A DNA stretch of 64,000 nt from an uncultured delta proteobacterium (GCA_963807225.1 CAWEAD010000008.1:200586-264585); one strand, 5' to 3'. Positions 42,738 to 46,777 are shown, counted from the first letter of the stretch. The notes: generated by a model not told the origin, from the letters alone. Numbers and translations are program-made.

Positions 42738-43610
42738 TTAACGTGTCCGGTCATATCGCATCTGTGCAATCTGTTCCGATACCAGGCCGATCATGAATAT
42801 TATTACCGAGGCGGAAAAAAGTAGAGCTGACATGTTGGTGAAGCGATGTATGGTGAAGAAGGTGTACAAGTAGTAACCAAGCCCAATTGAAAAAAACATT
42901 GCACTTACCGGCAAGAAAATTCTCAACGGTGAAAAGAGGGTGGCGATCTTCGTGATGATCAGAAAGAATCTGCTCCCGTCTTGGATTACTTTGATTTTGC
43001 TCTTCCCCTGCCTTGACTTGACGGTGATAGGAACGTATTTAATGCTCCGGCCACTTCTCAGATAGGCCATGGTCAAGGTGGTGGGGTAGGAGAAGGTATT
43101 GGGCAGGAGGTAGATGAAAGACTCGACTGTATCTTTTTTCACCAACCGAAAGCCGCTGGTAAGATCCTCAATCTTGAACTTGGTAATGTAAGAGGCGAGA
43201 TTGTTGTAAATGAGATTGGCGATCCCCCGGTGCAGTGATGCTTGCCCCTTATTGTTTCTGGCACCCACCACCATATCGAAGCTGCCCTTGTATTCCAGCA
43301 GTTTACCGATCTCAGACGGATCGTGCTGACCGTCGGCATCCATCATAATGATCCAGTCCCCGGAGGCGCTCCGGAGTCCGGTTTTGATGGCGGCGCCGTT
43401 GCCCATATTGTACGGGTGGGGCCAGACATTGGCTCCGGCGTTCATGGCCGCCTTGATTGTCTCGTCATTGGATCCGTCATCGACCACCAGAACTTCATAA
43501 TCAGGATATAGTTCTTTGATCGAGGCGATGGTCTGCCCTATCGATGCCTCTTCGTTATAAGCCGGAAGAAGAACCGTGACTTCTGGGGTTGGCTGATCAG
43601 CTTTGCTCAT
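42738..43610 (-). CDS. polyprenyl-phosphate glycosyltransferase (GT2, GtrB/ArnC/DPM1-like) with two C-terminal TM helices
   Basis: VTVLLPAYNEEASIGQTIASI...VLVVDDGSNDET...IIMMDADGQHDP (DxD), plus C-terminal TM helices. ATG 43610 overlaps the upstream GT-C/TPR gene end by 14 nt. Confidence 0.8.
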   Translation of the reverse strand: MSKADQPTPEVTVLLPAYNEEASIGQTIASIKELYPDYEVLVVDDGSNDETIKAAMNAGANVWPHPYNMGNGAAIKTGLRSASGDWIIMMDADGQHDPSEIGKLLEYKGSFDMVVGARNNKGQASLHRGIANLIYNNLASYITKFKIEDLTSGFRLVKKDTVESFIYLLPNTFSYPTTLTMAYLRSGRSIKYVPITVKSRQGKSKIKVIQDGSRFFLIITKIATLFSPLRIFLPVSAMFFSIGLGYYLYTFFTIHRFTNMSALLFSASVIIFMIGLVSEQIAQMRYDRTR

Positions 43611-45984
43611 TTCCACCACCATGCAGTGAGTTATCTTTTTGCATCCGGATATAATGTTTCCAGTATCGCCAATTGTGAGCGTTTGGATAAACTTGCAGCA
43701 ATCTCTCAACCGAGTTTAGGGCGGCATCATTTTTGTTCAAGGCGATAAGTTGTTTGCACTCGGTTTCCAGCAAAGGGGCGAAGTAGGGATTGGCGGCGAT
43801 CACTTTCCTCAGACTGTCAAGATCATAAGTGTGAGGTTTGCGCGCCGAATGCAATCTGATATAGGCCAGAGCGACAAATGGGTCATCAGGCTTCTGCTTC
43901 TTGAGGTCGCTCAGCATCAGCTCTGCAAGGAAATAAAGCGGTGGGTAACGGTCGGTGATCAGCCTGGAAAATTTGAGGAAGATGAGGTTTTTGCGGCTGC
44001 CGCTGATAAAATCGTCCCGGGAAATATCGGTAGCCTCGGCTACGAGACGATTGCGGTTCTGCTCGTCGGTCAGGCGCGTCTTCAGTTCGATTAATTTGAC
44101 TTGTTCCGGTGACGATGAATTGGCATCGACGTTGGCGAGGAGCTGTCCCGCGGCCTGGTAATATCTGAAATCCAGAAGCATCTTCGACAGGGTATAAATG
44201 ATGGCGGTATCCGGGTCATTGAACTCGGCCAGGCCGATGGAACTGCCGTCTCCTTTGATCTTATAAACATCCTTGATCAGGGCCGAGATGTTCATCAGCA
44301 GGTAGCCGTTGTCGGTCCGACTATCACTTCCCAAAGCCTCTCGGAATTTCTCCAATGCCGAACGGTAGTCGCCTATTTGCCAATAAAGGCTTCCCTGGGT
44401 GGAGAGAAAATCCGGCAGGGCGATCTGATTGGCCATAGGTGGGATATGCCTCATCAGTTCCTCTGCCCTGCTGACGGCCTCGGAGGGACCGGCAGTATTC
44501 TTCACGCAGATAGTCAGGTTGTTGGCAGTGGTTAGATACGCTTCGTCATATCTTGTGCCGAGGCTGATGGACTTTTCCAGCAGCGGGATAGCTTCCCGGC
44601 AGCGGCCCGCCTTGCCGAGGGCCAAACCAAGATTGGCGTATGCCCGGGGCTTTTTAGGAGATTTACTTATGACGTCGCTGTACAGGCTGACTGCGTCCCG
44701 CCAGTCATTATTGCGCAGGGTGGTGAGGAGAGATGAAACGGCGAGGATAATAATCAAACCCAGCCATATTGGTCTGAAATCATGGATGTCTCTTCCCAGA
44801 CTACTCTGGAATTTGCGTAAGCTCAGGTCGATTATTCCCACCAGGGCCATGAAAAATCCCACCGATGGCAGGTAGAGGCGGTGTTCAAAAACCAGTTCCA
44901 AGGGGACAATGGTGGATTCGATGACCAGATTCAGGAAAAAGAAAAAGACCCCGAAGGTGACCAGCGGCGAGCGGTGGCGATATCTATAGGTGGTCGCGAT
45001 CAGCCGCCCAGAAAGATGATGCTGAGGAGGGTGGTGGGTGGCGAAAACAGCGAGGTGGAGATCATGGTCTGATGGTCGAGGTTCATCCTGGAAGGCAGCG
45101 GCAGGGCCAGAAGGCTCATGTACCAGACCACCACCCGGGACTCGGTCAGAAGCCTTTCCCAACAGTTAAAGGGCCGGTGGCCATAACTGTTGATCATGTC
45201 GGTCAGAATCTGGAGTGGGAAACGGCAGGACTAACAGTAAAATCAAGCCAAGACCAAGCCAGTGGACGGGTCGAAGCCGGGCCAGAAAACGAGAGAAGCT
45301 GCCAGGATTGATGATGGTGCACTCCAGCAGCAGCAGAGCCAGAGGCAAGGTGGCGGAATTTTCCTTGGACATAAAGGCCAGTAGCCGCGCTGACCCCGCA
45401 GAGAAGCAGGTGGGTGACACGGCTGACACCGTGATTTGGCGGTGCGCCCGTATAGGTAAAAGGTCATGGCCAGCAGGTAGAACAGGGCCATCATCGAGGT
45501 CATGCGCTGGACCAGATAGGTCACCACATTGGTCTGCACCGGCGAGAGGCCCCAAAGACCGCAGATCCCGAGGACAATAAAGGTTGGGCGGTAGAAAAGA
45601 CTGACTTCCTTAAGAGTGGTACGTTCAAGCAGTCCCTTGGAGAAAAAAGAACAGGGTTGCCACGGCCAACAGATGAATAAAGATGTTGGTCAAGTGGTGG
45701 TACTGGATATTTCCCGTAGCAGAGTTTGTTGTTGACGGCAAAGGTCAATAGGGGAATGAAGCGGGCGATTCCGAAGCGGGTTGAGGCAATTTTGCTTTAT
45801 AGAGTCCAAGAAAAATCCTGCGGGTGCATCTGGCTGTTTTCGATAAAGGATATGCTAGTCATCAAGGGCCGGGGGGGAAAAGAGGCTGTTACTGGAGGAG
45901 ATGAAAATCAGAAGTAGGAGAAGGACCAGCAGGACTTGGCTGTTTGTAAGAAATCCGGTAATTTCTGTGGTAAGTCATGGACAT
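43597..45984 (-). pseudogene. GT-C-fold membrane glycosyltransferase (PMT_2/DUF1736, TMTC-like) fused to a C-terminal TPR domain; N-terminal membrane half heavily frameshifted
   Basis: The C-terminal ~470 aa (TPR-like, ORF 43597..45162) are intact. The membrane domain is scattered over at least five ORF-track fragments in alternating frames (45521..45748, 45243..45539, 45166..45555, 45000..45197, 43597..45162), plus two further pieces upstream of 45750. Family-like pieces include NSLF..DD, LTFAVNNKL, GNIQYHHLTNIFIHLLAV, SPVQTNVVTYLVQRMTSMMALFYLLAMTFYLYGR, LLAFMSKENSATLPLALLLLE, LTESRVVVWYMSLLALP and LVFEHRLYLPSVGFF. Confidence 0.65.
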
Positions 45985-46051
45985 AATGATTTATTAGCGA
46001 AAAGCAGGAGATCAGTCCGCGGAAAACCTGGGTCGGACAGAGAATTATCAC

Positions 46052-46091
46052 AAAAAAAGACCGCTTCCCTTTTGCCAGGGAAGCGGTTTTT
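46052..46091. terminator. bidirectional intrinsic terminator downstream of the pilin gene
   Basis: ACCGCTTCCC-TTTTGCCA-GGGAAGCGGT perfect 10-bp stem (46060-46087), flanked by A7 (46052-46058) and T5 (46087-46091). This gives a U-tract on both strands. Confidence 0.75.
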
Positions 46092-46115
46092 CTTAAACAA
46101 CAATTGCTTTGGTGA

Positions 46116-46631
46116 CTAGGGCAATATTACTGAATGCCTAACTGATTGGCCAGAGTACCGTTCGGCTCCAGTTGATAATCTTGCCGTTGGTGGCATTGGG
46201 GGTGAAATGCAGGACGCCTGAGCCGCAGCATTCTGGCCGCCATTATCTGTATCGGCAAGTTTTTTCAGTTTATCGTTGGTTGAGTCGGAGGTCGAGAGTG
46301 ATAGTAAGTGATCCTGGCGGGGTAGCTTCGATCGTTGAGCGGGAATGAAAATAAGTGGTATCAGCATCCCCGGCGAAAGTTCTCGATCGTCTTGCCGGGA
46401 TAGAGGAGTTCCGTCTGGCATTTTATTCTGGGTGGCATAAAAGAGGCCGATATTGGTCTCGATCGAATGCAACCCCGGGAAGACCAGGGCGGTCAGACGG
46501 GATTTCTGAATGTAGGTCATGTAGGCCGGGATGGCCACGGCGGCCAGGATGCCGATGATCGCGACAACGATCATCAGCTCGATCAGGGTAAAACCTTTTT
46601 CCTTATTCTCTTTCCTCAGGTGCTTCAGCAT
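46116..46631 (-). CDS. pilA: type IV pilin (prepilin with class III signal); C-terminal domain possibly frame-disrupted
   Basis: [37 protein letters not shown] has the G-1/F+1/E+5 prepilin peptidase site. GGAGGAAAGAGTT precedes ATG 46631. After about residue 65 the annotated frame becomes low-complexity, while more pilin-like segments appear in the other two frames. Confidence 0.7.
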
Positions 46632-46761
46632 AACTCTTTCCTCCACTGTTTGGTTAACCGAATGTAGCCCAGTCAGCTGGGATACATGAATTCCTAGGAT
46701 TAAAAACGCTATTTTTATAGCATACGTCCTGAAACTTTAAAACATTTATCTGTCATAAGTG

Positions 46762-46777
46762 AGCAAACTTTATGCCA
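46762..46777 (-). promoter_or_regulatory. sigma54 (-24/-12) promoter upstream of the pilin gene
   Basis: The minus strand reads TGGCAT-AAAGT-TTGCT, against the consensus TGGCAC-N5-TTGCW with correct GG/GC spacing. It lies about 130 nt upstream of the pilin ATG. Confidence 0.6.

Follow-up and report, generated by a model that had tools for sequence, protein, structure and literature searches.

Does the pair of membrane-enzyme genes that follows a type IV pilin gene in an uncultured delta proteobacterium serve to glycosylate that pilin? The locus lies in a 64,000-nt stretch of DNA (GCA_963807225.1 CAWEAD010000008.1:200586-264585; the window, by which we mean this whole stretch). On its minus strand, from 47022 down to 42738, it comprises tRNA-Gln(CUG), a sigma54 element, a prepilin gene, a terminator hairpin, a gene for a GT-C-type glycosyltransferase carrying tetratricopeptide repeats (the GT-C/TPR gene), and a gene for a family 2 glycosyltransferase (GT2). 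Apart from the tRNA gene, the initial annotation had described this order and these elements, and all of them were found where it placed them, including the 14-nt overlap of the two enzyme genes, as the GT2 ATG stands 14 nt before the stop codon of the gene upstream. It had also suggested, in hedged form, a TfpW-like role of the pair in glycosylating the pilin beside it or some other periplasmic target, and the comparative evidence from fold, motifs, linkage and layout favours this suggestion. We read the locus as a TfpW-type cassette of pilin and accessory enzyme, built from a TMTC-like enzyme pair, that glycosylates the pilin, and we put the probability of this reading at roughly 0.6.

To collect relatives we scanned one genome per GTDB species, which yielded 345 encoding stretches, and kept the best 79 loci, 67 of which had enough upstream sequence to enter the linkage count. 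A same-strand prepilin gene lies directly upstream of the GT-C/TPR gene in 60 of these 67 loci, ending a median of 146 nt before it, against a flank background of four prepilin open reading frames (ORFs) in 497 kb, or 0.008 per kb. Clustering of the ORFs gave 90 pilins in 68 loci; on the same strand, 77 of them precede the GT-C/TPR gene and 11 follow it. The linked loci span Desulfobulbia, Syntrophobacteria and other Desulfobacterota, and their flanks differ. In the Desulfobulbia context the pilin and GT-C/TPR pair follows CysS, Memo and tRNA-Gln(CUG), the tRNA gene being directly upstream of the pilin gene in 15 of 15 Desulfobulbia-type loci versus none of 10 Syntrophobacter-type loci. The GT2 gene directly follows the GT-C/TPR gene in 18 loci (the Desulfobulbia set), and the three closest metagenomic relatives (59-71% identity) have the same order of pilin, GT-C/TPR and GT2 genes. 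In the Syntrophobacter-type context, a 253-aa ORF and then ileS-lspA lie downstream of the pair. The pilin gene and the GT-C/TPR gene are the conserved core of the system across Desulfobacterota. A survey of such neighbourhoods had been proposed in the initial annotation as a check on the pilin link, and its outcome agrees with that link Desulfobacterota-wide. The proposal had been directed at Desulfuromonadales, and this placement did not hold: CysS of the window is 62-74% identical to its counterparts in metagenome-assembled genomes of Desulfobulbia/Thermodesulfobacteriota, and the organism is, judged by its sequence, a relative of Desulfobulbia instead.

The linkage bears directly on an alternative in which the GT-C/TPR protein is a broad-specificity protein O-glycosyltransferase of the PMT/TMTC or PglL kind, with pilin as one substrate or as the most abundant one. 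Pilin-linked and pilin-unlinked paralogues do occur together in some genomes (L016/L028, L022/L077), the membrane domain belongs to a very large family (64,247 clusters at 50% identity with E ≤ 1e-3 and 13,104 with E ≤ 1e-30, using an N-terminal profile), and TMTC enzymes, like PMT enzymes, act on classes of substrates. Moreover, the GT2 is conserved like a housekeeping enzyme, its identity among related loci (65-79%) being similar to that of CysS. However, the orthologous group considered here is tied to the pilin, behind the pilin's own terminator, in nine tenths of the loci counted above, and its GT-C protein evolves fast along with the pilin, which the GT2 does not. In addition, pglL of Neisseria, which encodes a general enzyme, is unlinked to the pilin gene (bioRxiv 10.1101/2020.04.19.049825). 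We consider broad specificity unlikely, and prefer a role in glycosylating the adjacent pilin.

The GT-C/TPR gene has about 796 codons, from about 45984 to 43597 on the minus strand, and its product matches TPR families from about residue 420 to the C-terminus. The remaining part is a membrane domain for which Pfam and NCBIfam returned nothing, reporting TPR families only, even in intact homologues at E ≤ 1. Neither phmmer nor a profile of 29 N-terminal domains found a match among Protein Data Bank (PDB) sequences, and hhalign against E. coli ArnT was not significant (probability 0.2). The Pfam family PMT_2 was touched by a single one of the 29 members, at 1.7e-4 and below threshold, and ten more distant family members had no Pfam membrane-domain match except a weak one to DUF6056. 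Identity of the GT-C/TPR protein to more distant relatives is only about 38-40%. We thus turned to structure prediction on P0002, an intact homologue 62% identical to the stitched GT-C/TPR protein of the window. The full-length AlphaFold model (predicted local distance difference test, pLDDT, 91.7; predicted template modelling score, pTM, 0.88) shows an all-helical repeat domain from about residue 429. As a Foldseek query this model returned results swamped by TPR proteins; therefore, the N-terminal domain was modelled alone (residues 1-428, pLDDT 82.7, pTM 0.85). With this domain, ranks 1-13 against the PDB were all GT-C enzymes (STT3A, ArnT, Pmt1/2, Pmt4 and AglB) with probabilities of 0.95-1.0 and TM-scores of 0.33-0.47, ArnT being found at ranks 2 and 7. 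The label GT-C, which the initial annotation had given to this protein, is therefore backed by the fold of a modelled homologue, but it is invisible to every sequence model and could be reached only by structure prediction.

The conserved residues point in the same direction as the fold. Across 98 homologues 38 columns are invariant; they include charged residues, and most are located in membrane-domain loops or close to them. Directly past the first transmembrane (TM) helix come an invariant D42 and a D43 conserved to at least 90%, as expected of an acidic catalytic motif, and both K206-E207-N-S-A-T211 and E366-H-R368-L-Y370 (F-E-H-R-L-Y) are invariant or nearly so. These motifs line up with M1 (DD), M4 (KE(T/Q)xxT) and M7 (ERxxY) of the TMTC enzymes as tabulated by Eisenhaber and colleagues (PMC7801869, Table 4), while M3 and M5 are only partly kept. 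The Lys of TMTC M4 binds the phosphate of dolichyl-phosphate-mannose (PMC7801869). On the basis of the model and these motifs, we read the membrane protein as a putative divergent GT-C enzyme that would work like TMTC or ArnT, and we do not file it as a member of the TMTC family. The same residues bear on the possibility that the protein is a non-catalytic pilin accessory, that is, a chaperone or assembly adaptor like TfpY or a TPR protein of the PilW/PilF type. Its TPR part weakly resembles the TPR lipoproteins PilW and Tgl, and genes behind a pilin terminator need not encode enzymes (PMC11841053). On the other hand, among the 38 invariant columns are charged residues at positions that serve catalysis and phosphate binding in GT-C enzymes, and the Desulfobulbia set shows translational coupling of the gene to that of a lipid-sugar synthase, which makes a purely structural role very improbable compared with a catalytic one in pilin glycosylation.

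The donor side of the proposed system is represented by the GT2, a protein of 290 aa that matches Glycos_transf_2 at 5e-30. Its full-length matches are all polyprenyl- or dolichyl-phosphate sugar synthases, namely, AglJ (E 5e-38, profile positions 1-288 of 293), PgfS (positions 3-293 of 308), PpgS and ArnC, and its identity to E. coli ArnC is 28% over 265 aa (E 5e-24). Two C-terminal hydrophobic segments lie at about residues 215-240 and 257-282. The description of this protein in the initial annotation as a GtrB/ArnC-like GT2 with C-terminal TM helices is in agreement with these results. However, since it reaches no curated equivalog cut-off, we assigned it at the level of its class only, with no specific sugar. 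The GT2 is probably shared with paralogous GT-C/TPR enzymes encoded elsewhere in the genome.

The acceptor candidate is a type IV prepilin, which matches Pfam N_methyl at 2.9e-10 and also NCBIfam pilin models including TIGR02532. Its short leader ends in Gly and is followed by F(+1), E(+5) and the hydrophobic N-terminus of helix alpha-1, as in type IVa pilins. A frameshift-aware alignment with the intact 168-aa orthologue of L003, the locus of the closest relative, has 129 identities over 162 positions, and other intact relatives of 160-166 aa, named PilA by the Joint Genome Institute (JGI), are 71-77% identical. The product as called in the window has 171 aa and is out of frame. Among the related loci, the globular domains of the pilins differ at 69% of positions on average.

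An alignment of the pilins of 65 related loci has a D-A-D-T-x-x-F motif past helix alpha-1, at about mature position 71-77, in which the fourth residue is Ser or Thr in 85%. The family also shares a C-terminal G-K-I-x-x-W...L-A-x-x-L-G-L pattern, and the conserved cysteine pair is absent. We note the Thr/Ser of D-A-D-T as a possible glycan acceptor site that the alignment suggests, and make no claim for it.

The signals around the pilin gene are consistent with a transcription unit in which pilin is made in excess of the enzymes. The upstream element TGGCAT-N5-TTGCT (TGGCATAAAGTTTGCT) is the single match to TGGCAY-N5-TTGCW in the 64 kb, where 0.17 would be expected by chance and at least one match was seen in 15 of 100 shuffles. 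It stands 182 nt ahead of the Gly codon of GFTLIE, and L003 has a counterpart, TGGCATAAAGATTGCT, at a distance of 184 nt. Among the relatives the strict motif precedes only 13 of 85 pilin genes, and these account for 13 of its 19 matches across all loci. The window element agrees with the GG(-24)/GC(-12) consensus, and with the enrichment of the strict motif upstream of related pilins we predict it to be a promoter. Behind the pilin gene, a hairpin (46087-46060) of 11 pairs, 7 of them G-C, is followed by CTTTTTTT, with a folding energy of -21.7 kcal/mol. A hairpin with a T-run is present in 42 of 70 related pilin/GT-C intergenic regions versus 2 of 67 intragenic controls.

Table 1. Features of the pilin locus and of the adjoining plus-strand cluster, with window coordinates.
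Feature	Coordinates	Strand	Identified by
tRNA-Gln(CUG)	46949-47022	minus	ARAGORN
sigma54-type -24/-12 element (predicted promoter)	46762-46777	minus	consensus match
Type IV prepilin gene, PilA-like, frame broken four times	46127-46631 (ATG at 46631)	minus	Pfam N_methyl, NCBIfam pilin models
Rho-independent terminator hairpin and T-run, between pilin and accessory genes	46050-46087	minus	window scan and folding
GT-C/TPR gene, N-terminal two-thirds of the GT-C-type membrane domain, 7-9 lesions	45004-45984	minus	frameshift-aware alignments; fold via P0002 model
GT-C/TPR gene, last TM helices and C-terminal TPR domain, frame intact	43597-45003	minus	TPR_16, TPR_2, TPR_12
Intact GT2, GtrB/ArnC/DPM1-like polyprenyl-phosphate sugar synthase, two C-terminal TM helices	42738-43610	minus	family and pairwise matches
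Convergent variable glycan cluster: family 4 glycosyltransferase (GT4), GT2, TagF-like, TagD-like cytidylyltransferase, second TagF-like, second GT4 (last two frame-disrupted)	35816-42686	plus	Pfam

A pilin gene followed by a Rho-independent terminator and then by an accessory gene has been described as the 'pilin-accessory cassette' of Pseudomonas and other bacteria, in which the terminator sets the stoichiometry of the two proteins (PMC11841053). The accessory gene of group IV P. aeruginosa, directly downstream of pilA, is tfpW; its product is a GT-C protein of 646 aa with 11 predicted TM helices, whose first periplasmic loop contains a DDx motif and whose C-terminal part is a periplasmic TPR domain, its loss abolishes glycosylation of the pilin with D-arabinofuranose, and a few Gamma- and Betaproteobacteria are reported to have homologues beside pilA (bioRxiv 10.1101/2020.04.19.049825). 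The window system resembles this one in its layout, in the multi-span N-terminal GT-C domain with a DD(x) in loop 1, and in a sizeable periplasmic TPR domain at the C-terminus; the use by TfpW of a lipid-monophosphate-linked sugar donor is a further likeness. It differs in that its family members have about 790 aa with a longer TPR part, in that an ArnC/DPM1-type GT2 is coupled to the enzyme instead of a DprE1/DprE2-type arabinose pathway, and in its Desulfobacterota host. Because the layout is like that of Pseudomonas pilA-tfpW and the linkage recurs among relatives, glycosylation of the pilin is supported by association, that is, by fold, motifs and conserved linkage, and is not proven.

With regard to the enzymes themselves, the closest parallel is to TMTC1-4 and DPM1, which likewise combine an N-terminal domain of the GT-C/PMT clan, a C-terminal TPR domain on the non-cytoplasmic side and a polyprenyl donor made by a GT2. 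The family shares with TMTC1-4 the loop-1 DD, KE(T/Q)xxT and E-R-x-Y motifs, and ArnT (5ezm) is among its closest solved structures. However, DUF1736, a Pfam family of the TM7-TM8 loop that matches all TMTCs, was absent from four intact homologues (E ≤ 1) and from the 29 N-terminal domains (E ≤ 10), the RxD and DW motifs are altered to R-M-T and D-H-D, and the presumed substrate in this bacterial periplasmic system is a pilin, not a cadherin. The division of labour is that of ArnC/ArnT and GtrB/GtrC, in which a GT2 loads undecaprenyl phosphate and a GT-C enzyme transfers the sugar on the periplasmic face, but those systems modify lipid A or O-antigen with GT-C enzymes that have no TPR domain. 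TfpO/PilO and PglL also glycosylate type IV pilins, and tfpO too is directly downstream of pilA; unlike the enzyme considered here, they belong to a different protein family with no relation to TfpW-like GT-C enzymes, transfer preassembled oligosaccharides such as O-antigen units, and lack a TPR domain. Closer in lineage, the cable bacteria (Candidatus Electrothrix and Electronema, from the same wider group, Desulfobulbaceae) have a pilA cluster with TPR proteins and sugar enzymes. In Candidatus Electrothrix this conserved cluster holds at least one gene for a TPR protein as well as two enzymes that modify sugars, one of them a 'phospholipid carrier-dependent glycosyltransferase', and the TPR proteins are treated only as protein-protein interaction modules, with no proposal of pilin glycosylation (PMC10580974). 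Our literature search turned up no report of glycosylated pilins in this group.

If the locus works as these comparisons suggest, transcription starting at the sigma54 promoter would yield abundant pilin mRNA, and read-through of the terminator would yield less mRNA for the enzymes, as the layout implies. On the cytoplasmic face, the GT2 would, as a member of its class, move one sugar from a nucleotide sugar to undecaprenyl phosphate, and the lipid-linked sugar would then be flipped by a protein encoded outside the cassette. The DD motif in the first periplasmic loop of the GT-C domain, together with the Lys/Arg phosphate-binding residues, would transfer the sugar to the pilin, with the periplasmic TPR domain presumably holding the protein substrate. 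The acceptor would probably be a Ser or Thr of the pilin globular domain, modified before the pilus is assembled.

A further alternative is that the pair modifies a non-protein acceptor, such as lipid A or the lipopolysaccharide (LPS) core, an exopolysaccharide or a glycerol-phosphate polymer, and that it adjoins pilA only as part of a shared island of surface variation. The best fold matches include ArnT, the GT2 matches include ArnC, and variable glycan genes with TagD- and TagF-like members adjoin the cassette. Against this, the large periplasmic TPR part (about 360 aa) is of a kind that binds proteins, the TPR-bearing GT-C enzymes considered here, TfpW and TMTC1-4, both have a link to the glycosylation of proteins, and the pilin and GT-C genes stay together where all other neighbours differ. 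We regard a non-protein acceptor as quite improbable. Since the tie to the pilin holds across contexts and conserved residues occupy catalytic and phosphate-binding positions, all three functional alternatives are less well supported than glycosylation of the pilin.

Several observations nevertheless weigh against pilin glycosylation as we propose it. The reading is a prediction from fold, motifs and linkage. By sequence, the membrane domain matches no GT-C model or structure significantly, the Foldseek E-values for the GT-C matches are modest (0.01-0.3), and the GT-C superfamily also holds enzymes that act on lipid A, polysaccharides or teichoic acids. The likeness to TfpW is drawn from its published description. 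Most Syntrophobacter-type loci have no GT2 of the ArnC/DPM1 kind within 6 kb. The cassette has no flippase, whereas the ArnC/ArnT and GtrB/GtrC systems encode a small one alongside (ArnE/F and GtrA, respectively). Finally, a mirror-tree comparison of the pilin globular domain with the TPR domain, controlling for the membrane domain, found no covariation beyond phylogeny (partial r 0.06, p 0.2).

The copy in the window raises a question of its own, since its reading frames are broken. Lesions were scored as frame-disrupting changes in frameshift-aware alignments against the intact homologues P0001, P0002, P0005 and L003; L003 is intact apart from a run of N, and the other close homologues are intact. 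The pilin gene has four lesions, near 46405, 46290, 46225 and 46163. The GT-C/TPR gene has 7-9 depending on the reference (6-8 indels plus 1-2 in-frame stops), all at about 45960-45004. One in-frame stop is a TAG directly past the DD motif (...ALDD, then stop), and one lesion is a nonsense substitution, with TAG where L003 has Tyr. The remaining 1.4 kb of the GT-C/TPR gene, the GT2 gene and the Memo gene are free of lesions, the GT2 also in comparison with L003. That the GT2 alone is intact here would be explained by its sharing with paralogous GT-C/TPR enzymes. As it stands in the window, the sequence reads as a non-functional pilin gene and a non-functional first third of the GT-C gene.

Two plus-strand genes, the second TagF-like and the second GT4, are frame-broken too, with lesions placed only roughly since the available homologues are just 22-33% identical. 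The lesions fall into two patches, 40372-42686 and 45004-46631, and the 2.26 kb between them (42738-45003) is clean.

The initial annotation had proposed that the system may now be inactivated, and the lesions in the pilin and GT-C genes do correspond to that proposal; they may equally be an assembly artefact, and the corrected protein has no excess divergence. The frame-corrected N-terminal GT-C sequence is 68-71% identical to intact homologues, which are 62-72% identical to one another in the same region, and it keeps all invariant residues of the family. With no measurable excess of substitutions and about a dozen indels, the sequence fits either a very recent inactivation or consensus errors in a strain-variable stretch. 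In the latter case the disruptions would be errors of consensus or assembly, for example in an unpolished or strain-mixed stretch of long-read metagenome, and the cassette would be working in the organism. In favour of such errors are the density of the lesions (about 12 in 1.6 kb), their type (mostly scored as 1-nt insertions), their confinement to two patches and the intact state of all close relatives. Natural decay of bacterial genes is generally deletion-biased, which likewise counts for errors. On the other side, an origin of the frameshifts in homopolymers was rejected since the lesions lie outside them, one lesion is a nonsense substitution, and variable surface-structure loci are common targets of real gene loss. 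Moreover, the rest of the window, some 58 kb of ordinary housekeeping DNA, has its genes intact, among them ftsA, ftsZ, valS, cysS, leuA-like, prs and pth. We give recent decay and consensus error about equal weight, so that the odds of a cassette still working in this organism are about even.

The value of the window copy itself is lower, as it reads broken and is perhaps mis-assembled, and the wider interest lies in the family. We propose, tentatively and at somewhat less than even odds, that, within a large bacterial TMTC-like GT-C/TPR family invisible to Pfam, one clade is devoted to the glycosylation of the major type IV pilin in Desulfobacterota. If this is true, the TMTC-like class, so far known from the O-mannosylation of animal cadherins, would gain a defined bacterial protein substrate, and the abundant pilins of Desulfobacterota, a lineage that includes cable bacteria and syntrophs, would be glycoproteins. 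Pilin glycosylation by a pilA-adjacent GT-C/TPR enzyme has so far been represented only by TfpW in a few Gamma- and Betaproteobacteria, whereas here a conserved cassette of this layout occurs in many Desulfobacterota, with a different donor pathway, of the DPM1/ArnC type, and with an enzyme that has the motif set of the eukaryotic TMTC O-mannosyltransferases. If confirmed, the reading would provide an entry point for annotating a dark family of membrane domains that numbers over 60,000 sequence clusters and a tractable bacterial model for TMTC-type substrate recognition via TPR domains. It would also mean that the pilins of Desulfobulbia and Syntrophobacteria are modified after translation; relatives of these pilins are discussed in connection with extracellular electron transfer and cable-bacteria biology.

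Some further observations concern the gene content of the related loci. The synteny CysS-Memo-tRNA-Gln-pilA-GT-C/TPR-GT2 is fixed in Desulfobulbia-type loci, with variable glycan genes beyond it. The pilin cassette adjacent to a tRNA gene recalls that of Pseudomonas, which likewise lies beside a tRNA gene. A second prepilin gene is found directly downstream of the GT-C/TPR gene in L007, L019, L020, L027, L029, L031 and L042, and several Syntrophobacter-type loci have a tandem pair of pilin genes upstream. The 253-aa ORF family occurs about 120 nt downstream on the same strand in 23 Syntrophobacter-type loci (L032, L041, L060-L078 and others); its members begin with a signal-peptide-like segment, continue with a Pro/Gln-rich linker and end in a conserved domain. 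We considered a PilP-like identity for this ORF and dropped it, as it has no Pfam match.

As to the neighbouring plus-strand glycan cluster, relatives carry other glycosyltransferase and methyltransferase genes at its position, and it may or may not belong to the pilin system. Between its first GT4 and GT2 genes, about 750 bp (37034-37780) contain no ORF of at least 70 aa on either strand. The segment 37781-40369, which encodes the GT2, a TagF-like CDP-glycerol glycerophosphotransferase and the TagD-like cytidylyltransferase, is low in GC (0.377 for 38-40 kb versus about 0.55 for the window). These are genes for a glycerol-phosphate polymer, here in a Gram-negative lineage, and they probably arrived by horizontal transfer. 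Elsewhere in the window, two intact ORFs, 58143-59147 (334 aa) and 49580-50083 (167 aa), have no Pfam match at E ≤ 0.01. An RtcB-like ORF at 59180-60340 (386 aa) matches Pfam RtcB in two separate parts, the better of which spans only profile positions 137-426 of 426, and may be truncated at its N-terminus or have a mis-set start.

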